Below are positions 2,432 through 27,327 of a stretch of 37,471 nt of DNA, one piece after another. This DNA is from a virus (Duplodnaviria > Heunggongvirae > Uroviricota > Caudoviricetes). The position numbers and the translations under genes were made by a program. The DNA lies in IMG/VR virus record IMGVR_UViG_2563366824_000004; one strand, given 5' to 3'. Every line of letters starts with the position of its first letter. The stretch's first letter is position 1. The notes under the pieces are model-generated. The model worked only from the letters and a program-made list of their open reading frames with translations. It was not told the origin of the DNA and did not search any database.

Positions 2432-2941
2432 ATGTTTGATTACCAAGTTTCCAAACATCCACATTTTGATGAAGCCTGTCGTGCATTCGCACTGCGCCAC
2501 AATCTGGTGCAACTGGCAGAACGTGCGTGCATGAATGTGCAGATTCTGCGGAACAAGCTGAACCCAGCTCAACCTCATTTATTAACCGCACCAGAAATCT
2601 GGCTGCTTACCGATCTGACTGAAGATTCAACGTTGGTAGATGGTTTTCTGGCACAGATTCATTGTCTGCCATGTGTACCGATTAATGAGGTAGCAAAAGA
2701 GAAACTGCCGCATTACGTCATGAGCGCAACTGCAGAGATCGGGCGTGTTGCAGCAGGTGCGGTATCTGGTGATGTAAAAACTAGTGCCGGTCGTCGTGAT
2801 GCTATCAGCAGCATTAACTCTGTAACACGACTGATGGCGCTGGCTGCTGTTTCATTGCAGGCCCGTTTACAGGCTAATCCTGCGATGGCGAGTGCAGTTG
2901 ATACCGTGACTGGCCTCGGTGCTTCATTCGGTTTGCTGTGA
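2432..2941 (+). CDS. cII: CII-like transcriptional activator (186 CII family)
   Basis: [49 protein letters not shown]...[22 protein letters not shown] closely matches 186 CII as I recall it. ATG at 2432 has a GGAG upstream; the ORF-track start at 2423 is TTG. Confidence 0.85.
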
Positions 2942-5086: not shown

Positions 5087-7497
5087 GTCATGCCGATATG
5101 AACAACTGCTGCGGCTTTAACGAGGCTGCCGCAGCATTCTCATGGAACAGCCCGAAAAAGGCCATTAACCCTTATCTGGACCCGGCGGAAGTTGCGCCGG
5201 TTTCTACGCTTTCAAACCTGATCACTCTGTACGCTGCCGATAACGAGCAGGAACAGTTGCGCCGCGAGGCACTGAGTGATCAGGTCTGGGAGCGTTATTT
5301 CTTTAATGAATCCCGTGATCCTGTCCAACGCGAAATGGAGCAGGATAAGCTCATTAGCCGGGCAAAGATGGCGCATGAGCAGCAGCGTTTTAATCCGGAC
5401 ATGGTCATTCTGGCCGACGTCAACGCCCAGCCTTCCCATATCAGCAAGCCGCTGATGCAACGTATTGAATATTTCAGCAGCCTGGGCAGGCCAAAGGCTT
5501 ATTCCCGCTATTTGCGTGAGACGATTAAGCCATGTCTGGAACGACTGGAGCATGTACGCGACAGCCAGCTATCTGCATCTTTTCGTTTTATGGCAAGCCA
5601 TGAAGGGCTGGACGGTCTGCTGATCCTGCCTGAAATGAGTCAGGATCAGGTGAAACGCCTGTCTACCCTTGTCGCTGCGCATATGAGCATGTGTCTTGAT
5701 GCCGCTTGTGGTGATTTGTACGCCTCCGATGATGTTAAGCCAGAAGAAATCCGCAAGACATGGGAAAAGGTGGCTGCAGAAACCCTGCGACTGGATGTCA
5801 TACCGCCTGCGTTTGAGCAACTCCGCCGGAAAAGAAACCGCCGCAAACCTGTGCCCTATGAACTCATTCCGGGTTCGCTGGCGCGTATGCTGTGCGCCGA
5901 CTGGTGGTATCGGAAATTATGGAAGATGCGTTGCGAATGGCGGGAAGAGCAGTTGCGTGCTGTCTGCCTGGTCAGCAAAAAAGCATCTCCCTATGTCAGC
6001 TATGAAGCCGTGATGCATAAACGTGAGCAGCGCCGTAAGTCGCTGGAGTTTTTCCGTTCTCATGAACTGGTGAACGAAGACGGCGACACGCTGAACATGG
6101 AGGATGTGGTAAACGCCAGCAGCAGCAACCCGGCGCATCGCCGCAATGAGATGATGGCCTGTGTTAAAGGCCTGGAGCTTATCGCGGAAATGCGTGGTGA
6201 CTGCGCCGTTTTCTACACCATCACCTGTCCGTCACGTTTCCATTCCACGCTAAATAACGGCAGGCCAAACCCGACCTGGACCAACGCGACAGTAAGACAA
6301 AGCAGCGATTATCTGGTCGGCATGTTTGCTGCATTTCGTAAGGCTATGCACAAAGCCGGGTTGCGCTGGTATGGCGTGCGGGTGGCTGAGCCGCATCATG
6401 ACGGCACAGTTCACTGGCACCTGTTGTGTTTCATGCGTAAAAAAGACCGCCGCGCCATTACTGCATTGTTGCGTAAGTTTGCCATCCGTGAAGACCGCGA
6501 GGAGCTGGGCAATAACACGGGGCCACGCTTTAAGTCTGAGCTGATAAACCCGCGCAAAGGAACGCCGACAAGCTACATTGCGAAATATATCAGTAAGAAT
6601 ATTGACGGGCGTGGTCTGGCTGGCGAGATCAGTAAGGAAACGGGTAAATCCCTGCGTGATAACGCTGAATACGTTAATGCCTGGGCGTCTCTGCATCGTG
6701 TTCAGCAATTCCGCTTCTTTGGCATTCCGGGGCGTCAGGCTTACCGTGAACTGCGATTGCTGGCTGGTCAGGCGGCAAGGCAACAGGGTGACAAAAAAGC
6801 AGGTGCGCCGGTACTGGATAACCCGCGCCTTGATGCCATCCTGGCTGCTGCTGATGCTGGTTGTTTTGCCACCTACATCATGAAGCAGGGCGGCGTACTG
6901 GTTTCCCGCAAATATCACCTCATCAGAACCGCTTATGAAATCAACGAAGAGCCAACCGCCTATGGCGATCACGGTATTCGTATTTATGGCATCTGGTCAC
7001 CCATTGCAGAGGGCAAGATCTGCACTCATGCAGTGAAGTGGAAAATGGTTCGTAAGGCCGTTGACGTTCAGGAGGCGGCAGCCGACCAGGGCGCTTGCGC
7101 CCCTTGGACTCGTGGCAATAACTGTCCCCTTGCTGAAAATTTGAACCAACAAGGGAAAGACAAATCAGCTGATGGGGACTCCAGAACGGATATTACCCGT
7201 ATGAATGACAAGGAGTTGCACGATTACCTGCACAGTATGAGCAAAAAAGATCGCCGGGAACTGGCAGCAAGGTTACGCCTGGTGAAACCGAAACGGCGTA
7301 AAGACTACAAACAGCGAATTACAGACCATCAGCGACAGCAGCTTGTCTATGAATTGAAGTCCAGAGGATTTGATGGCAGCGAGAAAGAGGTCGAGTTGCT
7401 CCTTCGCGGTGGCAGTATTCCGTCAGGAGCAGGCCTGCGTATCTTCTATCGGAACCAGCGTCTGCAGGAGGATGATAAGTGGCGGAACATGTATTAA
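5083..7497 (+). CDS. A: Replication initiation protein gpA (rolling-circle endonuclease)
   Basis: 804 aa; HxH metal motif (TVHWHLL) and the tyrosine pair region [13 protein letters not shown] typical of P2 A-family initiators; located after the early operon. Confidence 0.9.
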
Positions 7498-7591
7498 TTA
7501 CGCTGATTAACAATTCGTGCTCTTAATAATACCAGGCATATCAGGCTGATGAACGTAAAAAAACGTTTTACATCAGTAAGATTATTATATA

Positions 7592-7607
7592 CTGTAAATA
7601 TAAACAG
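7592..7607 (+). promoter_or_regulatory. LexA (SOS) box CTGT-N8-ACAG
   Basis: Sequence tACTGTAAATATAAACAGtg, 44 bp upstream of the ATG at 7651, matches the E. coli LexA consensus CTGT-(AT-rich)8-ACAG. Confidence 0.6.
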
Positions 7608-7650
7608 TGGTTATGTATACAGTATTGCTTGTGGTGTCATAGGAGGAAAA

Positions 7651-7839
7651 ATGCAGGACTATTTTTTGGAGTCTTTGAAGCTCCAGCGCATTGATTTTTT
7701 TCTTAAGCTTGTAGCGGCTAGTGAGTGTAGTGATGAAGAGAAGGGGCTGGCTTTGCAGTGGGTTTCTGAACTAACAGATGAACTCATGGCAAAAATCAGA
7801 ACCCACGAATACAACCGCTCAATGGATGTCATCAGTTGA
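7651..7839 (+). CDS. SOS-regulated small protein (63 aa), possible Tum-like antirepressor component
   Basis: ATG at 7651 with AGGAGG upstream, downstream of the LexA box. The longer ORF-track start at 7549 lies upstream of the operator and is rejected. Function inferred from context only. Confidence 0.5.
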   Translation: MQDYFLESLKLQRIDFFLKLVAASECSDEEKGLALQWVSELTDELMAKIRTHEYNRSMDVIS

Positions 7840-7849
7840 GGTGACTTTT

Positions 7850-8083
7850 ATGCGCATTGAAATAATGATCGATAAAGAGCAGAAGATTAGCCAGTCTATC
7901 CTGGACGCCCTTGAATCCGAGCTTTACCGCAATCTGCGCCCCCTGTATCCAAAAACGGTAATTCGTATCCGCAAAGGTAGCTCTAACGGTGTGGAACTGA
8001 CCGGACTGCAACTGGACGAAGAAAGAAAACAAGTGATGAAAATTATGCAGAAGGTGTGGGAAGACGACAGCTGGCTGCATTAG
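7850..8083 (+). CDS. DinI-family protein (77 aa)
   Basis: MRIEIMIDKEQKISQSILDALESELYRNLRPLYP...EERKQVMKIMQKVWEDDSWLH aligns along its length with E. coli DinI as I recall it (MRIEVTIAK...AIDALAGEL...KEDKQRISEILQETWESADDWF). GAGGTG RBS. Confidence 0.8.
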   Translation: MRIEIMIDKEQKISQSILDALESELYRNLRPLYPKTVIRIRKGSSNGVELTGLQLDEERKQVMKIMQKVWEDDSWLH

Positions 8084-8211
8084 AGAACGTTGCGGATGAT
8101 AAAACTAGCTTTTACCATCTGCAAGGCTGAACAACGATTGTAGCGAGGTGTTAGGTGGTTCAAAAGTAAAGCGGTTATTTTGCCCGTAAAAGTGAACCAC
8201 CTGTATCTTGA

Positions 8212-8952
8212 TCAGTTTTCTTTGAATTTTTCACTTAATCGTTTCGTCAATACTTCGACAGATTCTTTGCGACCGGAGAACAAGTCATTGACGACGTACT
8301 CCATAATCTCAAAAGCATCCTCAATGTCTTTGACTTTTACTTCATCGTAGGTATGGCTTCCGGCATTTCCTAAAAATTTAATTGCCATAAGAGGTCTTGA
8401 AAACGATCCGTATAATTCAGGTAGCATCCCTAAACGGTGGTGTAGAGTTATGCGTTTGCCATTATCATTACGTTCAGCTACATCCATAGCGGTTAGCATT
8501 CTTTCAACTGAAATTCGAATTAGGTTTGCTGCTGCGCCAGGCTGTATTAGGAAAATGGAAAATGAGGCTTCAAGCGGTTCGGTAATTTCTTCTGGGCATT
8601 TTTCAGGTATTTCGAAAGGATGCAGTGATGGGTAAAAGGTGAAAGGTCTGTGCCATTGATAGTACTCAATATCATTTCTTTCTTCATCCCAACCTTGTTC
8701 CCATCCACTCTTACCAGTACAGGCCACAACTTCACCACATTGCATTCTTGAACAGCGGGCCATGCAACTGAAAATAGATGAATCCATTTCTAGTTCAAAC
8801 CAATCTTCACTGCGGAATTTTCGGGTATCATGTGTGTCATACGAGACGAAACTTTCTTTAATGATCTGTAGGGTTTTCTGATTGCAGTTAGGGCAGGGCC
8901 ACTCAACCTGCATATCGTGGAAAAACGCACCAGAGAGCTTGTGCACAGTCAT
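8212..8952 (-). CDS. Hypothetical cargo protein (246 aa) with N-terminal Cys-rich putative Zn-ribbon; candidate phage-exclusion gene
   Basis: Leftward AT-rich ORF at the position occupied by tin/old in P2. CPNC...C...C..C cysteine clusters; C-terminal alpha-helical region with a GNAGSH motif. Confidence 0.7.
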   Translation of the reverse strand: MTVHKLSGAFFHDMQVEWPCPNCNQKTLQIIKESFVSYDTHDTRKFRSEDWFELEMDSSIFSCMARCSRMQCGEVVACTGKSGWEQGWDEERNDIEYYQWHRPFTFYPSLHPFEIPEKCPEEITEPLEASFSIFLIQPGAAANLIRISVERMLTAMDVAERNDNGKRITLHHRLGMLPELYGSFSRPLMAIKFLGNAGSHTYDEVKVKDIEDAFEIMEYVVNDLFSGRKESVEVLTKRLSEKFKEN

Positions 8953-9152
8953 TCTTTGTGTTCCTCATTTTTATGATTGGTAGGGATTGTATCTTCATAC
9001 ACGATTACAGTTGCATTAAAGATAAGCCATAGCAAGCTACTGGAAAAGAGACGAAACAGTTGGGCATATCAGATGTTTTTTCTTAAGGTAAGTTGTTGTG
9101 CATGCCTATACTGCATGAGATTGCATGATCGTTTGAGGATCGTTATTGCTAA

Positions 9153-9177
9153 GGCCCACCAGAACTGGCGGGCTTTT
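9153..9177 (+). terminator. Candidate intrinsic terminator (imperfect GC stem followed by TTTT)
   Basis: GCCCACCAG-AA-CTGGCGGGC followed by TTTTG; would terminate rightward transcription just before the candidate cos site. Confidence 0.35.
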
Positions 9178-9222
9178 GCGTAGAGCATGCAGGTGCATGA
9201 AAACAACTACATAAAGCGGGCA

Positions 9223-9241
9223 GGCGTGGCGGGGATACGAG
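9223..9241. other. Candidate cos (cohesive-end) site
   Basis: GGCGTGGCGGGGATACGAG: the first 13 nt match the 19-nt cohesive end of 186/P2 as I remember it (GGCG(T/A)GGCGGGGAAAGCA..); located between A and Q as in P2-family genomes. Recalled from memory, not verified. Confidence 0.35.
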
Positions 9242-9356
9242 CGCGCGCTGGTTAATTTATATGAGAACAATCTCATATAAATATTCGAGACAAGTTGCAA
9301 AAAAACGCGGAGCATTATATGTTTAGTAGCAAATTCTGAACGTTGAGAATATTAAA

Positions 9357-10625
9357 ATGGAAATTTTTGATACGAATGATATCTTTGGGCTCTCAAGAGA
9401 TTTGCCACTTAATTACATTGAAAGACCTGATGTTGATTTCAAACTTAAACAGGAATTACAAGCAAAGAAACATATTGTTATTTACGGCAGTTCAAAGCAG
9501 GGTAAGACTTGCGTAAGAAAACACTGTATTAATTCTGATGATTATATTTTGGTGCAGTGTTCGAATCGTTCTGATGTATCTGAATTGAATGCAAGTATTT
9601 TAAAAAGAGCTGGATTCGAAATAACTCAGTCTACCAAGAAAGGTATTACGGGGAAAAATAAAATAATCGCATCAATAAAAACTTCTATTTTGGGTTTTGT
9701 GGCGAGTGCCGGAGGCGAGATCGAAGATACGAAATCTCATGAACAAGTAACCGCGCCTTTAGAAATTGATGTTGATGATGTTAATGATGTTATAGCGGCT
9801 TTAAAATCTATAAATTTCAAGAAGATTATCGTTCTTGAGGATTTTCATTATATGCCTTTCGAAACTCAAAGAGATTTTTCGATCGCATTAAAAGCCTTTC
9901 ATGAAACATCAAGCATTATTTTTGTAATTGTTGGAGTTTGGCTAGAAGATAATCGGCTCATTGTTTACAATGGTGACTTAACTGGCAGGATTATTTCTGT
10001 TAACGCAGACAAATGGCAAGATTCTGAACTGGAGATGGCAATTGATAAAGGAGGTTTACTCCTTAACATTGATTTTGATCCAACTTTCAAAGCAGATGTA
10101 GTAACACACTGTCTCAATAGTATTTATTTAGTGCAAGAAGCATGTAGGCGTGCGTGTATTGAATGCGGAATATCAGAGACTCAGCAAACAAAAAGAACTA
10201 TTGGAGCTGGTTTGGATGGAAAGGATATCATTGCAAAAATTGTTAATGACCAATCGGCTCGTTACAATTCTTTCCTTATTAATTTTTCAGATGGATTTCA
10301 AGATACTGAACTTCAAATGCATAAATGGATTTTATATCCTGTCCTTTCATCAACCATTAGTGAACTTGAATTAGGTTTGAAATTTAAAGATATAAGGGCA
10401 ATATTACAAAGTGTACATCCAAGAGGGGAGAAGTTAAACCTGGGTAATGTTACTCAGTCGTTACAATCAACGGCGTCTTTGCAAATAAAGAAAAATATAA
10501 TGCCTATTATTTTGGATTATGACCAAACAAATAGGAAACTGAATGTTGTTGATAAAGGCTTCCTAATATGGTTGCAACATCAAGATATCAAAGATCTAAA
10601 GGATGATTTGGAGTTGCCAAATTAA
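9357..10625 (+). CDS. P-loop NTPase (422 aa), hypothetical cargo; candidate defence or abortive-infection ATPase
   Basis: Walker A GSSKQGKT (residues 44-51) and Walker B-like IIVLEDFH; C-terminal roughly 200 aa without a motif I recognise; strongly AT-rich; lies between the candidate cos and portal gene Q. Confidence 0.75.
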   Translation: MEIFDTNDIFGLSRDLPLNYIERPDVDFKLKQELQAKKHIVIYGSSKQGKTCVRKHCINSDDYILVQCSNRSDVSELNASILKRAGFEITQSTKKGITGKNKIIASIKTSILGFVASAGGEIEDTKSHEQVTAPLEIDVDDVNDVIAALKSINFKKIIVLEDFHYMPFETQRDFSIALKAFHETSSIIFVIVGVWLEDNRLIVYNGDLTGRIISVNADKWQDSELEMAIDKGGLLLNIDFDPTFKADVVTHCLNSIYLVQEACRRACIECGISETQQTKRTIGAGLDGKDIIAKIVNDQSARYNSFLINFSDGFQDTELQMHKWILYPVLSSTISELELGLKFKDIRAILQSVHPRGEKLNLGNVTQSLQSTASLQIKKNIMPIILDYDQTNRKLNVVDKGFLIWLQHQDIKDLKDDLELPN

Positions 10626-18588: not shown

Positions 18589-18982
18589 AGCGGTGCCTTA
18601 TGTCCGCAATAACCCGGACAAACTGCATCTGTTTGTGGATAACGGTTCGCTGGTTGCTACAGGGGCCAGCTCCATGTCATGGGAGTATCGTTACACCCTG
18701 AACGTGGTGGTTGAGGATTTCAGCGGCGACCAGAATCTGTTGATGGCCCCGGTTTTGCTGTGGCTGCGGGATAACCAGCCCGATGCCATCAATAACCCGG
18801 CGTTACGGGAAAAGTTATTCACCTTTGAGGTGGATATTCTGCGCAATGATGTCTGTGATATCAGCCTGAACCTGCAACTGACGGAGCGTGTGCTGGTCAG
18901 CACTGACGGCAGTGTGTCGAGCGTTGAAGCGATAACGGAACCCGATGAACCTGAAGAAATGTGGACGGTGAAACGTGGCTGA
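18551..18982 (+). CDS. R: Tail completion protein gpR
   Basis: GTG at 18551 with AGGAG upstream gives MNKPQSLRHALNKAVPYVRNNPDKLHLFVDNGS, resembling the P2 gpR N-terminus as recalled. Confidence 0.8.
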   Translation: MNKPQSLRHALNKAVPYVRNNPDKLHLFVDNGSLVATGASSMSWEYRYTLNVVVEDFSGDQNLLMAPVLLWLRDNQPDAINNPALREKLFTFEVDILRNDVCDISLNLQLTERVLVSTDGSVSSVEAITEPDEPEEMWTVKRG

Positions 18983-19418
18983 ATTGCAGAAAGTGGACGA
19001 CTGGCTGAGTGCCTTACTGGCGAATCTGGAGCCAGCTGCAAGAAGTCGCATGATGCGCCAACTGGCACAGGAGCTGCGCCGGACACAGCAGCAAAACATC
19101 AGGATGCAGCGCAATCCAGATGGCAGTAGTTATGAGCCGCGACGGGTAACAGCGCGCAGTAAAAAAGGCCGCATCAAACGTCAGATGTTTGCGAAGCTGC
19201 GCACCACAAAATACCTGAAAACTGCCGCCAGCGCCGATTCTGCCAGCGTGCAGTTTGAAGGTAAGGTGCAGCGCATTGCCCGTGTTCACCATTATGGACT
19301 GCGTGATCGTGTCAGTAAACGTGGGCCGATAGTTCATTATTCCAGACGATGCTTGCTAGGTATTAATGAGCCTATTAAAAAAGAAGTTGAGAGATTTTTG
19401 ATATATTGTATTTCATAA
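18975..19418 (+). CDS. S: Tail completion protein gpS
   Basis: GTG start overlapping the R stop; position after R. Confidence 0.75.
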   Translation: MAELQKVDDWLSALLANLEPAARSRMMRQLAQELRRTQQQNIRMQRNPDGSSYEPRRVTARSKKGRIKRQMFAKLRTTKYLKTAASADSASVQFEGKVQRIARVHHYGLRDRVSKRGPIVHYSRRCLLGINEPIKKEVERFLIYCIS

Positions 19419-19458
19419 CTTGCGTATATTGTTGCCCAGTGGCGATCTGGGCTTTATT

Positions 19459-21327
19459 TTAATTTTCAATGCTTTGCTTTAATTTATCTATTGCGGGAGT
19501 TAAACAATCATTTATGAGCTCATCGATTTGTAATGATAATATATTTGAGTTTATTTGAGTTTTCTTTTCAATTAGCTTTCTAATTAGCTCGCGGTGGAAA
19601 AAACGCTCTGCAGAAAGCTCTTTTAGATAAGGGGTGTTGTTGTATCGGTTTTTTATAGCATAGCCAAAGAAATGCATCTCGGTTGAGTCTATCAGTATTT
19701 TTGTTAGTTGTTCAGCATCACCAAAATAAAGAACTGGTTTGTCGTGAAATGAATAAATATCTTTGTTGTTGAAATTTAGATGTGCGTAATATTCATGATT
19801 TCCGGACTGTATTAATTTGAATATCTTTTGAGCGTCTTGGCTAAGTTGATATGCAATTAATACATTTTTCTTTTGTTCTATGTAATTAACAAGCTCCTTG
19901 AATTCCCTAGTTTCTTTGCAATGAAAAGTTAATCCTCTCCATCGCTCATCCTTAATGTCTTCATCAAAAATTTCATAACTAGTTTGTATCATTCCTTTTT
20001 CTGCTAAAATATCAACAGCAGAGTGGGCTAAGTTTGTTAAATAGTGTTCGTTGATGGGTTTTATATGTTCTCTGGATAAATGAAGTAATAATCCGTAAAT
20101 ATGCTTAAGAACATGCTCGTTCAATATTTCAAAATTAATAAGCGTATGAAGTGTTGAATTGTAATTTTCCTCAAATTCTGTGTATTTTAATCGATCATAA
20201 TTCCAAAGTTGTGTCCATGGCTCAATTGTTTTATTAGAAACACTGACGAATGTTATTAATTCAGATATTATTTTTTCTTGATTGATTTTCTGATTGTCAA
20301 TTATATCGATCCAGGTATCCTCGTCTAAGATTAAATTTGACAAATAAGTTGTACCATATTTTTCAATTAAATTGGATGTGTATTTATTATCATCATCTAT
20401 TTTATATGTTAACAAGTCAGAAACGGTTCGTTTTATTTTATTAGATTCAAAATAGAGTATAAAATGTAATTGATATAATCTGAGTGTCAAATCTGAATTT
20501 TGCTGAAACTGTGCTGGTAATATTTTGAATATTCTTTCAAAAAAAGAAATTTGCCTTTCAATTAATCTAATGTTATTACACTCTGAAAGAGTGAGTAAGC
20601 TCTCAATATTTTTTATGTTCAGAATGGTGTTGAGTTCGCTAGTTATATTTTTTAGAAAATATTCGTAGGCGTGAGAATGTTGAGGTTGATATTTGAAAGT
20701 TATACCTATAACTTTTTCTTTTGCATCTAAATAAATACCATCATGATTTTTATTTCTAGCGGGGTTTAATATTTCTCTCTCATTGGCGATAATCAAAACC
20801 TTGCATTCTTTTTCTTCAACGAAATTATTTATATAACCAAATATAGAATTCCAATCTAATTCGCAGCGTTCAAGATCATCAAATATCAATATGGTGTTTT
20901 CTGGTGAGTAGTAAAAGTCTTTAATGCTTACGTTGGGTAGTTCTGGGGAGCCCTCTACACTTGTAACGAATGAATCACTTAAATCAATCTTAAGTGTGCC
21001 TTTAATTAGTGCCTTAGTTAGTGTGCCAGCAAGCAACATGCCTTTAGATGAAAGGAAGGGATGCATTTGCTTGAAAATTATTTCGTCAATTTGTTCGGTG
21101 GATTTTATTCCATATAATGAGATCATTAATGGCTTAACTTTCCCTTTTAGTGATTCTTCATTCATTAATTTACGGACAAACCATGTTTTCCCGCTTCCCC
21201 ATTCGCCGTCAATCATTACTGCGAAATTAGGGGATTTTTCAAGATCCACTAAATAATTAAGATATGAGGTTAGCTCTTCATTGTAATTCATTGGATTGTA
21301 AGACCCTTCATACAATTTGAAAATCAC
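19459..21327 (-). CDS. KAP-family P-loop NTPase (622 aa), cargo gene between S and V
   Basis: Hallmark KAP Walker A DGEWGSGKTWF and Walker B ILIFDDLERC; strongly AT-rich; opposite strand to the flanking late genes. Start may be the ATG at 21291 rather than the GTG at 21327. Confidence 0.75.
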   Translation of the reverse strand: MIFKLYEGSYNPMNYNEELTSYLNYLVDLEKSPNFAVMIDGEWGSGKTWFVRKLMNEESLKGKVKPLMISLYGIKSTEQIDEIIFKQMHPFLSSKGMLLAGTLTKALIKGTLKIDLSDSFVTSVEGSPELPNVSIKDFYYSPENTILIFDDLERCELDWNSIFGYINNFVEEKECKVLIIANEREILNPARNKNHDGIYLDAKEKVIGITFKYQPQHSHAYEYFLKNITSELNTILNIKNIESLLTLSECNNIRLIERQISFFERIFKILPAQFQQNSDLTLRLYQLHFILYFESNKIKRTVSDLLTYKIDDDNKYTSNLIEKYGTTYLSNLILDEDTWIDIIDNQKINQEKIISELITFVSVSNKTIEPWTQLWNYDRLKYTEFEENYNSTLHTLINFEILNEHVLKHIYGLLLHLSREHIKPINEHYLTNLAHSAVDILAEKGMIQTSYEIFDEDIKDERWRGLTFHCKETREFKELVNYIEQKKNVLIAYQLSQDAQKIFKLIQSGNHEYYAHLNFNNKDIYSFHDKPVLYFGDAEQLTKILIDSTEMHFFGYAIKNRYNNTPYLKELSAERFFHRELIRKLIEKKTQINSNILSLQIDELINDCLTPAIDKLKQSIEN

Positions 21328-21344: not shown

Positions 21345-21938
21345 ATGCAAACTGCAACCATGAACGCACAACTCACAGAAATTATGCGCCTTATCACCAA
21401 TCTGATCCGCACCGGCATTGTGACCGAAGTGGACCGGAACAAATGGCTGTGCCGGGTGAAGGTAGGCGAGCTTGAAACCAACTGGATTAACTGGCTGACG
21501 CTACGCGCCGGTGGTGCCCGTACATGGTGGTGCCCGTCGCCAGATGAGCAGGTGGTGGTGCTGAGCATGGGCGGCAATCTGGAAACCGCGTTTGCGCTGC
21601 CCGCCATCTATTCGAATCAGTTCGCACCACCGTCGACGTCGGCGGACGCCTGCGTGACAGAACATCCTGACGGTGGCTGGTTTGAATACGAACCCGCCAC
21701 CGGGCGCTGGTATGTCAGGGGCATCAAATCAATGGTCATTGAGGCTGCTGACAACATCACCATGAAAACCAGTGAGTTTGTACTGGAGGCTGACCGCACG
21801 CGCATTAACAGCGAAGTGGTGATCAATGGTGGCGTTACCCAGGGCGGCGGAGCGATGAGTTCTAACGGGATCGTGGTTGATGCGCATCAGCATACTGGCG
21901 TCCTGAAAGGCGGCGATACAACCGGAGGCCCGGTATGA
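21345..21938 (+). CDS. V: Baseplate spike/assembly protein gpV
   Basis: IRTGIVTEVD...WINWLTLRAGG...WWCPS...GVLKGGDTTGGP resembles P2 gpV as recalled. Start may be the internal ATG at 21360. Confidence 0.85.
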   Translation: MQTATMNAQLTEIMRLITNLIRTGIVTEVDRNKWLCRVKVGELETNWINWLTLRAGGARTWWCPSPDEQVVVLSMGGNLETAFALPAIYSNQFAPPSTSADACVTEHPDGGWFEYEPATGRWYVRGIKSMVIEAADNITMKTSEFVLEADRTRINSEVVINGGVTQGGGAMSSNGIVVDAHQHTGVLKGGDTTGGPV

Positions 21939-23787: not shown

Positions 23788-25223
23788 GCACAAAATTTTA
23801 TACCCTGCTGACGGATATTGGCGCGGCGAAACTTGCCAGCGCCGCCGCGCTCGGTGTGCCGCTAAAAATTACCCATATGGCGGTGGGCGATGGCGGTGGA
23901 GTATTGCCAACGCCGGACGCAAAGCAGACGGCACTGGTAAATGAGAAACGCCGGGCTGCGCTGAATATGCTTTATATCGACCCGCAGAACAGCAGCCAGA
24001 TTATTGCCGAACAGGTGATCCCTGAAAACGAGGGCGGTTGGTGGATACGTGAAGTGGGCTTGTTTGATGAGTCCGGGGCGTTGATTGCCGTGGGCAACTG
24101 CCCGGAAAGCTATAAGCCGCAACTGGCTGAAGGTAGCGGGCGCACTCAGACCGTGCGCATGGTGCTGATTACCAGCAGCACGGACAATATCACCCTGAAA
24201 ATCGACCCTGCTGTAGTGCTGGCAACCCGCAAGTATGTGGATGACAAGGCACTGGAGCTGAAGGTGTACGCGGATGATCAGATGGCAAAACATCTTGCCG
24301 CACCGGACCCGCATTCACAGTACGCGCCAAAAGCCAGCCCGACATTTACCGGAACCCCCAAAGCGCCAACGCCAGCGGCGGGAAATAATACCACGCAGGT
24401 TGCGACCACTGCGTTTGTACAGGCGGCACTGACGGCCCTTATTAATGGTGCGCCAGCCACGCTGGACACGCTGAAAGAAATAGCCGCAGCCATTAACAAT
24501 GATCCGAATTTCAGTACCACCATTAACAATGCGCTGGCACTAAAAGCACCGTTGTCGAGTCCGGCACTCACCGGAACGCCAACAGCCCCCACGGCGGCGC
24601 AGTCGGTCAACAATACACAGATTGCCACTACGGCTTTTGTGAAATCGGCGATTGCAGGAATGGTGGGTTCTGCACCTGCTGCACTGGATACACTGAACGA
24701 ACTGGCGGCGGCACTGGGGAATGATCCGAACTTTGCCACGACAATGCTTAATGCGCTGGCAGGTAAACAACCGCTGGACAATACGCTTACCAATTTGAGT
24801 GGAAAGGATGTAGCTGGTCTTCTCACATACCTTGGTTTGGGAGAAGCGGCAACGAGGAACGTCGGAACGGATACCGGGCAAGTACCAGATATGAGTAGTT
24901 TTACAACGGGGCACTCTGGAGCAGCAGACTGGCCGATTCCTAAATCTGGATGGAGTAAGGGGCCGGAAGGGGTAATTACACAATGGGGTATTTTCGGTTT
25001 CCCCGTTGGACAGACAGGGACGAATGTTGTTTTCCCGCTACCTTTCCCCGCGCGGGTCGAATCAATTACACTGACAATGGCAGATATCCAGGAGTCTCTG
25101 CTTTCTCCAACAACCATGCCTGCTTATGGAGTTAACTCAACTGGTACTTCAAGAACGGGTTTTACAGCCCGTATGTCAGGCGCCGGTGGGTTTAATCTTT
25201 GCTATATAGCGAAAGGGAGATAA
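23784..25223 (+). CDS. H: Tail fibre protein gpH, with a switchable C-terminal segment
   Basis: 479 aa; Ala/Thr/Asn-rich with internal tandem repeats; followed by a tail fibre assembly gene; contains a crossover site at 24830-24855. Confidence 0.85.
   Translation: MSTKFYTLLTDIGAAKLASAAALGVPLKITHMAVGDGGGVLPTPDAKQTALVNEKRRAALNMLYIDPQNSSQIIAEQVIPENEGGWWIREVGLFDESGALIAVGNCPESYKPQLAEGSGRTQTVRMVLITSSTDNITLKIDPAVVLATRKYVDDKALELKVYADDQMAKHLAAPDPHSQYAPKASPTFTGTPKAPTPAAGNNTTQVATTAFVQAALTALINGAPATLDTLKEIAAAINNDPNFSTTINNALALKAPLSSPALTGTPTAPTAAQSVNNTQIATTAFVKSAIAGMVGSAPAALDTLNELAAALGNDPNFATTMLNALAGKQPLDNTLTNLSGKDVAGLLTYLGLGEAATRNVGTDTGQVPDMSSFTTGHSGAADWPIPKSGWSKGPEGVITQWGIFGFPVGQTGTNVVFPLPFPARVESITLTMADIQESLLSPTTMPAYGVNSTGTSRTGFTARMSGAGGFNLCYIAKGR
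24333..24776 (+). repeat. Two tandem in-frame repeat units of about 222 bp (74 aa) inside the tail fibre gene
   Basis: ASPTFTGTPKAPTPAAGNNTTQVATTAFVQAALTALINGAPATLDTLKEIAAAINNDPNFSTTINNALALKAPL versus SSPALTGTPTAPTAAQSVNNTQIATTAFVKSAIAGMVGSAPAALDTLNELAAALGNDPNFATTMLNALAGKQPL. Confidence 0.7.
24830..24855. promoter_or_regulatory. Left 26-bp invertase crossover site (cix/gix/hix-like) inside the tail fibre gene
   Basis: TTCTCACATACCTTGGTTTGGGAGAA is an inverted copy (14 identical nt, TTGGTTTGGGAGAA) of the site at 26680-26705; resembles hixL TTCTTGAAAACCAAGGTTTTTGATAA as recalled. Confidence 0.55.
24830..25223 (+). other. Currently expressed variable tail fibre C-terminus (inside the invertible segment)
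   Basis: Portion of H downstream of the left crossover site. Confidence 0.5.
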
Positions 25224-25227
25224 CAGA

Positions 25228-25671
25228 ATGAATAAAGTTAAAAGTGTTTACAGCCCGTCCGAAAATGCAATCTACAACGCAGCGCTATATGAAAGTTATA
25301 TCAAGGAGGGGACATGGCCGCAGGATGGTATTGAAATCAGCGATGAGGATGCTGTCAGATTTAATGGGGGAAATAAGCCAACAGGAAAAATGCTGGGAAT
25401 GGTTTCAGGGACCCTTGCATGGGTTGATGAGCCGCCGCTTTCACCAGAACAGAAAATATCAGATGCAGAAAACATGAAAGCCACATTTCGTGCAAAAGCT
25501 GACAGTGAAATATCCTGGCGTCAGGATGCTGTTGATGCTGGTATCGCAACTGATGAAGAAACTTCAACTCTCACCCAATGGAAGAAATACCGTGTGCTGC
25601 TGATGCGTGTTGATACATCAACAGCCCCCGATATTGAATGGCCTACACCTCCGGCAGTTCAGGCCAGATGA
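25228..25671 (+). CDS. G: Tail fibre assembly protein gpG (147 aa)
   Basis: C-terminal motif TSTAPDIEWP typical of tail fibre assembly chaperones; directly after H. Confidence 0.8.
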   Translation: MNKVKSVYSPSENAIYNAALYESYIKEGTWPQDGIEISDEDAVRFNGGNKPTGKMLGMVSGTLAWVDEPPLSPEQKISDAENMKATFRAKADSEISWRQDAVDAGIATDEETSTLTQWKKYRVLLMRVDTSTAPDIEWPTPPAVQAR

Positions 25672-26236
25672 CATCCGGCGCGGTGCTGGTATCTGTTGCC
25701 GTCACCGCGTCAATGTAATCCAGCACGGCGTTAAGGCGGGTGGTTTCTGCCTGCGTCAGCCTCCGCCCGGCCTGTAATTTCAGCTGAATCAGACTGATGG
25801 AAGCCATTGCAGCATCAATCAGTGACTGGCGCTGTGCTTCTGCCGCGTCTACTGCGGCACCGTGTTGTGCCTCAGTATCTGTCACCCATTTCTCACCATC
25901 CCATTTATCATATGGCGTTAACGGTGAAAGCGTGACATAACCGTTTTTGATGGCACCGATATAATCCACTGTAACAGCAGCACCATTTTCGATTGAGTAA
26001 ACAGTCTCATTGCGATGGTCTTCTTCATGGCTCCATCCCTTACCTGTAAATACTGCCACTCTTCCCGGAATGTTTTCGCCAGGGTCAATACCAGTGGAAC
26101 AGGCGGGCATACTTACGCCAGTATTAATATATTCATCAGACCAGCCCGTATACTCAGATGTTTCAGCATCATAATAAAAACAACGCATATCGCCCGGCAC
26201 TGTAGCCAGCCCATTTTTATCAAAAACAGGTTTCAT
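25643..26236 (-). CDS. Alternative tail fibre assembly protein (197 aa), opposite orientation
   Basis: C-terminus ATDTSTAPDVIWPELP parallels gpG; converges on and overlaps G by 29 bp, as U/U' do in Mu-type invertible segments. Confidence 0.75.
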   Translation of the reverse strand: MKPVFDKNGLATVPGDMRCFYYDAETSEYTGWSDEYINTGVSMPACSTGIDPGENIPGRVAVFTGKGWSHEEDHRNETVYSIENGAAVTVDYIGAIKNGYVTLSPLTPYDKWDGEKWVTDTEAQHGAAVDAAEAQRQSLIDAAMASISLIQLKLQAGRRLTQAETTRLNAVLDYIDAVTATDTSTAPDVIWPELPEV

Positions 26237-26733
26237 TATTTAGCCCTCACCAGAAAGTTAAATGCAATATTGCGCGGTCTGACAGCAACAAAATTCACAC
26301 CATCACCCACAGAGTTACTGGTGAAATTAAATCGTGAAAATCCTGGCTGATTTCCGGCGATGCCATCATGAAAGTTAATTGCGTGTCCCGCACCTTCGCC
26401 TATATTCCCGGCAAACTGAGAAAAGTTTGTAGCTGCCTGCCAGCTTAATAATTCGCGACCACCGTCTGCACCTCGTCCGTCATCCCAGATACGAATGAAA
26501 TCACCGCGGGCTTCAGGTAATACCAGCGAAGGAAATACTTTCGCCAGCACAGGATAATCAGTGGCAGAGAATTTCGCGCCGTTGAACTTCAAAAACACCA
26601 TACTGGACCAGCTGTCGATTACAGTATTTGGCATTGCAGCGGACGGCCAGAAGAACGGAACGCCAATAGCTGGAGCACCTTCTCCCAAACCAACGTTTAA
26701 GAAAATGCAGAGGTAACAGCTAACTGGCATCAT
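26236..26733 (-). CDS. Alternative tail fibre C-terminal variable segment, silent in this orientation
   Basis: Reading frame continues through the right crossover site (encodes NVGLGEG, parallel to H YLGLGEA at the left site); on inversion it would fuse to the constant part of H. The ATG at 26733 is probably fortuitous. Confidence 0.65.
   Translation of the reverse strand: MMPVSCYLCIFLNVGLGEGAPAIGVPFFWPSAAMPNTVIDSWSSMVFLKFNGAKFSATDYPVLAKVFPSLVLPEARGDFIRIWDDGRGADGGRELLSWQAATNFSQFAGNIGEGAGHAINFHDGIAGNQPGFSRFNFTSNSVGDGVNFVAVRPRNIAFNFLVRAK
26680..26705. promoter_or_regulatory. Right 26-bp invertase crossover site
   Basis: TTCTCCCAAACCAACGTTTAAGAAAA; inverted relative to the site at 24830-24855; imperfect internal dyad around a central AA dinucleotide. 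Confidence 0.55.
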
Positions 26734-26760
26734 CTCCGGTTTTTATTCAGGGGGATGATC

Positions 26761-27327
26761 ATGCTTATTGGCTATGTACGCGTGTCAACAAATGACCAGA
26801 ACACCGATTTGCAACGAAATGCACTGAACTGCGCGGGATGTGAGCGGATTTTTGAGGACAAAATCAGTGGCACTAAGTCCGACAGACCGGGGCTGAAAAA
26901 ACTGCTCAGGACACTATCGGCAGGAGACACGCTGGTTGTCTGGAAGCTGGACAGGTTGGGGCGCAGTATGCGGCATCTTGTTACGCTGATAGAAGAGTTG
27001 CGCCAGCGTGGTGTGAATTTCAGAAGCCTGACTGACAGTATTGATACCAGTACCCCAATGGGCCGTTTCTTTTTTCATGTCATGGGTGCCCTGGCTGAAA
27101 TGGAACGCGAACTGATAGTTGAACGTACCAGGGCAGGGCTGGCTGCAGCTCGTGCCAAAGGCAGAGTAGGTGGACGCCGTCCTAAGTTGACCACCGAACA
27201 GTGGGCACAGATCGGGCGTTTACTCGAGGCCGGAGAATCAATACAGCGTATTGCACTGATTTTTGATGTAGGCGTTTCTACCATTTATAGAAAATTTCCG
27301 GCAAATAAGATCAATGAATCCCCCTGA
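26761..27327 (+). CDS. Serine DNA invertase (Cin/Gin/Hin/Pin family)
   Basis: MLIGYVRVSTNDQNTDLQRNAL...GDTLVVWKLDRLGRSMRHL...RTRAGLAAARAKGRVGGRRPKL plus a C-terminal HTH; catalytic Ser in the YVRVST context. The ORF-track start at 26755 is an alternative. Confidence 0.9.
   Translation: MLIGYVRVSTNDQNTDLQRNALNCAGCERIFEDKISGTKSDRPGLKKLLRTLSAGDTLVVWKLDRLGRSMRHLVTLIEELRQRGVNFRSLTDSIDTSTPMGRFFFHVMGALAEMERELIVERTRAGLAAARAKGRVGGRRPKLTTEQWAQIGRLLEAGESIQRIALIFDVGVSTIYRKFPANKINESP

Follow-up and report, generated by a model that had tools for sequence, protein, structure and literature searches.

Why does a P2-like prophage carry, between its tail genes S and V and antisense to both, a gene for a KAP-type P-loop nucleoside triphosphatase (NTPase)? 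The locus lies in IMG/VR virus record IMGVR_UViG_2563366824_000004, a stretch of 37,471 nucleotides (nt) that is called the window below. The window is nearly a whole P2/186-like prophage, and the stretch that we queried is 100% identical to a prophage of E. coli APEC IMT5155 that has its integration site between rcdA and ybjL. With moderate confidence, we read the KAP gene as an anti-phage defense gene, a horizontally acquired single-gene cargo in the slot that orf30 occupies in P2. This reading, reasonable but unproven, rests on the position, orientation, composition, and turnover of the gene and on the associations of its family. P2 is itself known for the defense morons old, tin, and fun.

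The KAP gene and its product

The minus strand of positions 19459..21327 holds an unbroken open reading frame (ORF) of 622 amino acids (aa), which the ORF listing starts at a GTG, and the motifs GEWGSGKTWF and DDLER by which the initial annotation had recognized a KAP protein are present in its translation. The length of this frame is not a product of chance: at its base composition (~30% GC), about 8% of random codons would be stops by our own arithmetic, and the probability of 622 open codons is then ~1e-23. Translation probably begins further in, at an ATG at position 21291, which would yield a protein of 610 aa. RefSeq places the start there in APEC IMT5155 (WP_001108703.1, a 610-aa "P-loop NTPase fold protein"), the PADLOC and PHROG profile alignments begin at residues 14-16 of the long ORF, i.e., at this ATG, and N4, L11, and Y14 (610-aa numbering) are nearly invariant among homologs. 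For these three reasons, the 12-codon extension back to the GTG is probably untranslated. The foreign origin that had been proposed from the AT-richness of the gene is supported by a drop in GC content, which is 0.27 to 0.31 over positions 19501-21000 but 0.52 to 0.59 just upstream and 0.56 to 0.60 downstream. The five commonest residues of the protein are Leu, Ile, Glu, Lys, and Asn. A 110-codon ORF that runs antisense within the gene (20924-21256, plus strand) has no support as a gene and was treated as a by-product of this composition.

Assignment to the KAP family was borne out by the Pfam profile KAP_NTPase (PF07693), which scored 60 bits (gathering score, 20; E 3e-16) and aligned residues 19-240 of the long ORF with profile positions 5-253 of 293; the same profile was carried by all 120 of the 120 homologs among the matches listed. 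The protein has the KAP-type Walker A motif G-x-W-G-x-G-K-[ST] and a Walker B motif with DD followed by E and R, and a helical region follows the NTPase domain, as in the KAP family. When 84 homologs were compared, Walker A residues G29, W31, G32, G34, and K35 and Walker B residues F137, D138, D139, E141, and R142 were invariant, as were N240, R242, E282, W359, R549, and Y550, and the C-terminal half was less conserved than the NTPase half.

More specifically, the protein matched three PADLOC models for PDC-S49 end to end (E 1e-134, 6e-133, and 1e-74), the best of these matches pairing residues 14-618 of the long ORF with positions 3-617 of a 619-position profile. It also matched PHROG 4740, whose function is unknown, while an NCBIfam search of the protein gave no match. 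The PDC families are 145 untested candidates that were picked because copies occur nested within loci for BREX, DISARM, or type I restriction-modification (RM) (bioRxiv 10.1101/2024.01.29.577857), and we found no mention of PDC-S49 in the literature that we searched. Since PDC-S49 is likewise a stand-alone single gene of the same length and is matched over its full length, it is the family of the window gene. The two differ in setting: the copies that define PDC-S49 sit within loci of those defense systems (BREX, DISARM, or type I RM), whereas the window copy occupies a slot in the tail region of a prophage. This full-length match to a candidate defense family keeps plausible the anti-phage or exclusion role that the initial annotation had suggested.

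The family is large and uniform in build. The protein has more than 540 full-length homologs, and a profile search of 1.84 billion sequences returned 3730 cluster representatives at E<=1e-30, while among species-representative genomes the family is scattered over Cyanobacteria, Bacteroidota, Pseudomonadota, Campylobacterota, and others. The best 150 representatives were about 430 to 730 aa long, mostly 600 to 700 aa, and nearly all of them matched almost the whole profile in one stretch; what remains unmatched is too short to hold a fused effector domain. In structure, the N-terminal domain resembles ORC/Cdc6, TnsC, MuB, STAND, and RdrA, and the C-terminal domain is alpha-solenoid-like and has no recognizable enzyme fold; we take the latter to be a sensor or interaction domain. 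A search of the KAP protein for nuclease, protease, TIR, SIR2, or pore domains found none.

Transmembrane (TM) insertions, which KAP proteins often have and which the initial annotation had therefore raised, were absent by hydropathy, with the highest Kyte-Doolittle mean over 19 residues (KD19) being 0.98. TM helices are not obligatory in the KAP family, since PifA, a founding member, also lacks them (PMC13001434). The canonical position of the KAP TM helices is taken in the window protein by an insert that is polar and Gly/Lys-rich, not hydrophobic (Table 1). Its conservation is 0.61, against 0.66 for the core. In the AlphaFold model the insert is disordered, and the predicted local distance difference test (pLDDT) score falls below 50 at residues 87-122. 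A membrane or amphipathic anchor in the insert was considered and ruled out by the low KD19 maximum and by a hydrophobic moment (muH) of 0.32, which ranked 168 of 593. It is conceivable, though a long shot, that the insert, which replaces the KAP TM hairpin, is a new soluble element for oligomerization or trigger sensing.

The slot between S and V

The initial annotation assumed that V directly follows S in canonical P2, so that the KAP gene would interrupt a structural operon and force the V promoter into a very short space. None of these points held. The P2 reference record (NC_001895) itself has an antisense, nonessential gene, orf30, between S and V, with the rho-independent terminator of the O operon directly before it and the activator-binding site of the V promoter, annotated ~55 nt upstream of the V start, directly after it. 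Since S ends one late operon and V begins the next, the slot is a gap between operons rather than the interior of one.

The same two borders were found in the window. A terminator hairpin at 19434-19452 (fold energy, -11 kcal/mol; z, -1.55) separates S from the KAP gene, whose stop codons converge on it, at the place where P2 has its annotated terminator; Rfam isrL matched here below threshold only and was rejected. On the other side, a TGT-N12-ACA dyad aligns with the equivalent late activator boxes of 500465-1, Cartapus, and P2 and is invariant in six diverged KAP-bearing junctions. The center of this box lies ~55 nt before the V start codon, a distance also seen in P2 and in empty-site relatives, and the V promoter is accordingly not squeezed. 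The box lies 5 nt outside the KAP coding sequence as defined by the ATG, and it is overlapped by the GTG extension only.

An antisense gene is also the norm for this slot when it is occupied, the slot being one of three long-known variable regions (PMC3091744): orf30, Z/fun, and old/tin are the sites of laterally acquired genes in P2-like phages (PMC3091744; PMC6823313). A recent survey of P2-like phages likewise places defense systems "within the late genes" and "downstream of GpL." P2 orf30 shares the slot and the antisense orientation of the KAP gene and, like the genes at old/tin and Z/fun, is AT-rich, nonessential, and laterally acquired, but at 261 aa it has no sequence relation to the KAP gene and no PADLOC match. 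The O terminator on one side and the V activator box on the other, variability among relatives, and deviant composition all mark the KAP gene as slot cargo. The candidate family was already catalogued and the slot already described as variable, and the gene is an added, prophage-borne member.

We then asked how far the exchanged DNA extends. Identity to the empty-site phage 500465-1 ends at ~19305, inside S, and returns at the activator box, which defines an exchangeable module of ~19305-21296 that includes a variant S tail. S is nonetheless full length (147 aa). Its tail diverges along with the slot cargo in the window, Cartapus, and Kp4865-2, with its length and an LLG(I/L)NE motif kept. The recombination border of the module is, as judged from these alignments, inside S. 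A search for direct or inverted repeats flanking the KAP cargo gave short AT-rich chance matches only. The missing repeats, together with borders that fall at the box and within the 3' part of S, fit exchange by recombination between P2-like phages better than transposition or site-specific insertion.

The occupancy of the slot varies widely. Among the 80 IMG/VR contigs whose V proteins are closest, the S-V junction was empty in 61 and occupied in 19, by inserts of 12 sizes, and the KAP gene accounted for 3 of the 19. It was found in 10 of 5426 complete E. coli genomes, in the S-V slot every time. By these counts, the gene is not conserved among the late regions of P2-like phages. Nearly all of the other cargos are single, antisense genes of 31 to 37% GC. 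They include an FRG-domain protein that matches PADLOC PDC-S15 (contig L168, 4980-5915, minus strand), a DUF6216 membrane protein (L140, 5091-5897, minus strand), and a SIR2_2-domain protein that resembles the N domains of ThsA and LmuA and is the sole occupant on the sense strand (L175, 4714-5922, plus strand). Another seven types of cargo are wholly unannotated.

The gpA-gpQ (old/tin) hotspot of the window prophage also carries low-GC cargo, at 8212-8952 (minus strand) and 9357-10625 (plus strand). It includes a DUF4145 protein with a weak match to PD-T7-4 (E 1.6e-5) and a 422-aa protein that matches PADLOC PDC-S59 (E 4.8e-72). With PDC-S59 at gpA-gpQ and PDC-S49 at S-V, candidate defense genes are present in two hotspots of this prophage. 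If the KAP gene is active, the little-studied orf30 slot would be a third or fourth site of defense cargo in P2-like phages, beside old/tin and Z/fun.

Relatives of the KAP gene and characterized systems

Homologs at 61, 60, 39, and 33% identity fill the S-V slot of other P2-like phages, again in antisense orientation; the S and V proteins of these phages have themselves diverged to 53 to 65% identity. Family members scoring 516 to 526 bits occur in two other P2-like hotspots, namely, gpA-gpQ and, in a high-GC phage, gpD-ogr (Table 1). The gene hence recurs in hotspots of the kind that carries defense genes, and it does so outside phages as well. A 30%-identical member on a Vibrio cholerae contig (L013, 1749-3614) lies among DUF645, DUF3709, and DUF1289 genes, a context that looks like a superintegron cassette array. 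In Pseudomonas, homologs (L012, 10001-11884; L015, 10001-11905) lie in small islands after glnK-amtB that hold serine recombinases of both the large and the small kind and, just downstream, a gene with a YagK/YfjJ domain; one of the islands splits a comM-like Mg-chelatase gene, and one has genes for a HigB-type toxin and a methyltransferase. The Flavobacterium homolog is a lone gene among housekeeping genes. Across these contexts, the KAP family gene is always alone, and no neighbor is conserved. A search of isolated phage genomes (INPHARED) found no close homologs, only matches of less than 32% identity over less than half of the query.

A decayed prophage provided a further observation on the turnover of the gene. 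Next to ybjL, a P2-like remnant of ~10 kb (L009 and L010; KAP gene at 8001-9857), seen in three independent samples, has two large deletions. One spans cII to the end of S and joins cII to the S tail; the other spans mid-H to the end of D and joins H to the last part of D. The V gene of the remnant is frameshifted. The remnant nevertheless carries an intact 618-aa homolog with 60% identity to the window protein.

The initial annotation described KAP NTPases as poorly characterized. This description is out of date, as both KAP fusion proteins (PMC13552941) and Reve (PMC13586616) have been shown to act against phages. Reve is a single-gene KAP system from a hotspot of P4 satellites that is experimentally protective (PMC13586616; bioRxiv 10.64898/2026.02.27.708500), with Drexlerviridae plaquing lowered by as much as about 1e-5 to 1e-6 (PMC13586616). 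We compared the window protein with the Reve sequence translated from its authors' synthetic construct. The two proteins are alike in length (586 aa for Reve versus 610 aa), in having no TM helix and an all-helical C-terminal half, and in being AT-rich cargo of P2/P4 hotspots; Reve has the motifs GEWGVGKT and IIDDLER where the window protein has GEWGSGKT and ILIFDDLER. The sole PADLOC match of Reve is PDC-S49 (2.5e-11), and Reve scores 26 bits against the profile of the window family (E 1.9e-10), mainly over positions 26-324. The best BLASTP segment between the two proteins has ~23% identity over 121 residues (E 1e-4), and their C-terminal halves are barely alignable. Reve is also carried by a satellite rather than a phage, and the targets of the two need not be the same. 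Judging from these comparisons, Reve appears to be the closest tested relative, but a distant one that shares the architecture and is not the same system.

Other characterized proteins are further removed. PifA of plasmid F excludes T7 and causes membrane depolarization and nucleotide leakage (PMC13001434). It resembles the window protein in its KAP_NTPase domain, its lack of TM helices, and its carriage by a mobile element. In contrast, PifA is 741 aa long, matches the KAP profile at 148 rather than 60 bits, and aligns with the window family around Walker A only (GAWGSGKT in PifA); it is also regulated by PifC, and no such partner is found at the KAP gene.

In Enterococcus faecalis, KAP domains fused to uncharacterized C-terminal regions are protective, with the Walker B motif and the C-terminal region both being needed; EF_KAP did not behave as an abortive infection system, and small serine recombinases serve as a marker for finding KAP defense genes (PMC13552941). 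Like the window protein, EF_KAP and the metagenomic KAP fusions have, behind their KAP NTPase, a long C-terminal region without a known fold, and they are linked to small serine recombinases, as are the Pseudomonas homologs of the window protein. EF_KAP differs in its two TM helices and its Firmicutes origin. KAP proteins are not mentioned in the Vibrio integron defense-cassette paper or in Vassallo et al. 2022.

Proposed role as defense cargo and its rivals

If the KAP gene is a defense gene, how might it act? Given that it is antisense to the late genes, a lysogen could express it even with the O and V promoters silent. The variable C-terminal alpha-solenoid would then bind a protein of an infecting phage, and this binding would switch the ORC/STAND-like NTPase domain into a nucleoside triphosphate (NTP)-dependent oligomer. 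The active assembly would stop the infection either by runaway NTP hydrolysis or by trapping or remodeling the bound phage component. We put forward this particular sensor-oligomer scheme as a tentative suggestion, with much less confidence than the defense reading itself. Tmn, which couples ATP turnover to Mg2+ export (PMC13001434), resembles the scheme in its P-loop NTPase, its solenoid-like sensing arm, its phage-protein trigger, and the turnover of ATP in its effector step. Tmn belongs to a different family (YobI), however, and unlike the window protein it has two TM helices in its NTPase domain and forms a decameric membrane pore; the window protein had no match to the PADLOC tmn models.

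Several observations weigh against a role in defense. PDC-S49 is a computational defense candidate, and so is the window protein. The homology to Reve is weak (26 bits, mostly in the NTPase half) and that to PifA does not extend past the Walker A region, so neither function can be transferred by homology alone. The protein shows no effector domain, so how the assembly in the scheme above would kill or block is a guess. The majority of the other slot occupants have no defense annotation, and P2 orf30 has no assigned function. A consensus scan for a KAP promoter found 10 sites, compared to 10.1 in shuffled sequence; the only sigma-70-like match, whose -10 element ends at 21295, would place the transcription start on the ATG or beyond it; and no Shine-Dalgarno sequence lies at a normal distance before the ATG in the window allele. 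The dN/dS ratios among close alleles, 0.24 to 0.42, are below 1 but come from just 9 to 11 substitutions, and about ten substitutions are too few to carry weight.

The main mechanistic rival is a defense that acts at the membrane in the manner of PifA or Tmn, in which leakage of ions or nucleotides, or plasmolysis, would produce abortive infection rather than a response by a soluble sensor. The depolarization and nucleotide leakage caused by the TM-less PifA and the Mg2+ export that is driven by ATP turnover in Tmn (PMC13001434) make such a mode of action conceivable, as does the conservation of the insert at the canonical TM position. Nevertheless, the window protein has no hydrophobic segment and its insert has no marked amphipathic helix, the family profile does not detect PifA beyond Walker A, and EF_KAP did not behave as abortive infection (PMC13552941). 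We consider action at the membrane rather unlikely on this evidence.

Two functional rivals dispense with defense altogether. The gene could be a moron that benefits the phage itself in replication, packaging, tail assembly, or lysogeny or in countering host defenses. Its place among tail genes, the covariation of the S C-terminal tail with the cargo, the resemblance of its N-terminal domain to the DNA-loading AAA+ proteins ORC/Cdc6, TnsC, and MuB, and the mostly unannotated state of the other slot occupants are all compatible with this possibility. It is made unlikely by the 61 of 80 close relatives that lack a slot gene and are otherwise complete phages, by the antisense orientation of the KAP gene outside both late transcription units, and by a family that resides mostly outside phages, in islands, integron cassettes, and positions embedded in BREX or RM loci; the retention of the gene in the dead prophage remnant argues in the same direction. 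Alternatively, the gene could be a selfish or addiction passenger, or a neutral hitchhiker, that spreads by recombination between the conserved flanks in S and V and benefits neither host nor phage. Its rarity in E. coli, the lack of a partner gene and of a detected promoter, and the very small number of substitutions from which selection could be measured would be expected of such an element. In contrast, the frame of 610 aa is intact in AT-rich DNA, the catalytic motifs are invariant, thousands of full-length family members exist across phyla, and the gene has survived intact in a decayed prophage. Since these properties are not those of a neutral gene, we regard the passenger explanation as improbable.

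Returning to the defense reading, the overlap between the KAP 5' region and the V promoter raised the question of whether the two are regulated together. Two diverged alleles have a good Shine-Dalgarno sequence between the activator box and the ATG, which implies that transcription starts in or beyond the V promoter region and that the late activator and the KAP promoter possibly compete. The sole sigma-70-like -10 hexamer for the KAP gene, TACAAT (21295-21300), overlaps the TGT half-site of the box. In an alignment of the six diverged junctions, only the activator box and V-coding constraints were conserved. It is conceivable, but we think it a long shot, that the defense gene is wired into the late switch of the prophage such that binding of Ogr at lytic onset shuts the KAP gene off. 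If so, the resident phage would be spared its own defense while the gene stayed on in the lysogen, and the position in the orf30 slot would be a regulatory device common to all cargos rather than a mere permissive gap.

The gene is, in sum, a plausible but ordinary example of prophage-borne defense cargo, and the gain in annotation is small: a label as a PDC-S49-family KAP NTPase and a start codon at 21291. If it is active, it would give a tested member to a family that numbers several thousand soluble KAP-type NTPases and is so far a computational defense candidate. Because it pairs a sensor-like solenoid with an NTPase and has no recognizable effector, its mechanism would show how such "effector-less" NTPase defenses function.

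Table 1. Coordinates of the KAP gene, its parts and its borders in the window, and of family members on three other contigs
Feature	Position	Strand	Basis
KAP-type P-loop NTPase coding sequence, 610 aa + stop (probable start)	19459..21291	-	ORF, RefSeq start, Pfam, PDC-S49
In-frame 12-codon GTG extension, probable untranslated 5' region; overlaps V activator box	21292..21327	-	Profile and homolog starts
Walker A GEWGSGKT, residues 29-36	21184..21207	-	Motif reading
Walker B ILIFDDLER, residues 134-142	20866..20892	-	Motif reading
Gly/Lys-rich insert between Walker A and B, residues 78-122	20926..21060	-	Conservation, hydropathy, pLDDT
N-terminal NTPase core + helical lid, residues 1-285	20437..21291	-	
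C-terminal all-helical domain, residues 286-610	19462..20436	-	
Tail-completion gene S, last of O late operon	18975..19418	+	ORF, RefSeq
Divergent AT-rich last ~37 codons of S	19305..19418	+	Alignment with 500465-1 and differently occupied junctions
O-operon (head/lysis/R-S) intrinsic terminator, hairpin GCCCAG-N7-CTGGGC then TTTATTTT	19434..19460	+	Terminator scan
TGT-N12-ACA dyad, Ogr/Delta-type late activator box of V promoter, right slot border	21297..21314	.	Alignment
Baseplate gene V, first of V late operon	21360..21938	+	ORF, RefSeq
Family members at 516-526 bits on other contigs	L028 5995-7887; L032 ~5998-7890; L062 5980-7923		Profile score

Two further features of the window lie away from the slot. 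Beside cII, a Fil-family filamentation gene (~2651-2806, plus strand) is a truncated pseudogene according to RefSeq in the identical prophage. In the tail-fiber region at ~25183-27273, RefSeq annotates duplicated, oppositely oriented assembly genes and a truncated fiber fragment, with a recombinase gene adjacent; this arrangement resembles a Gin/Cin-type invertible segment for host range.

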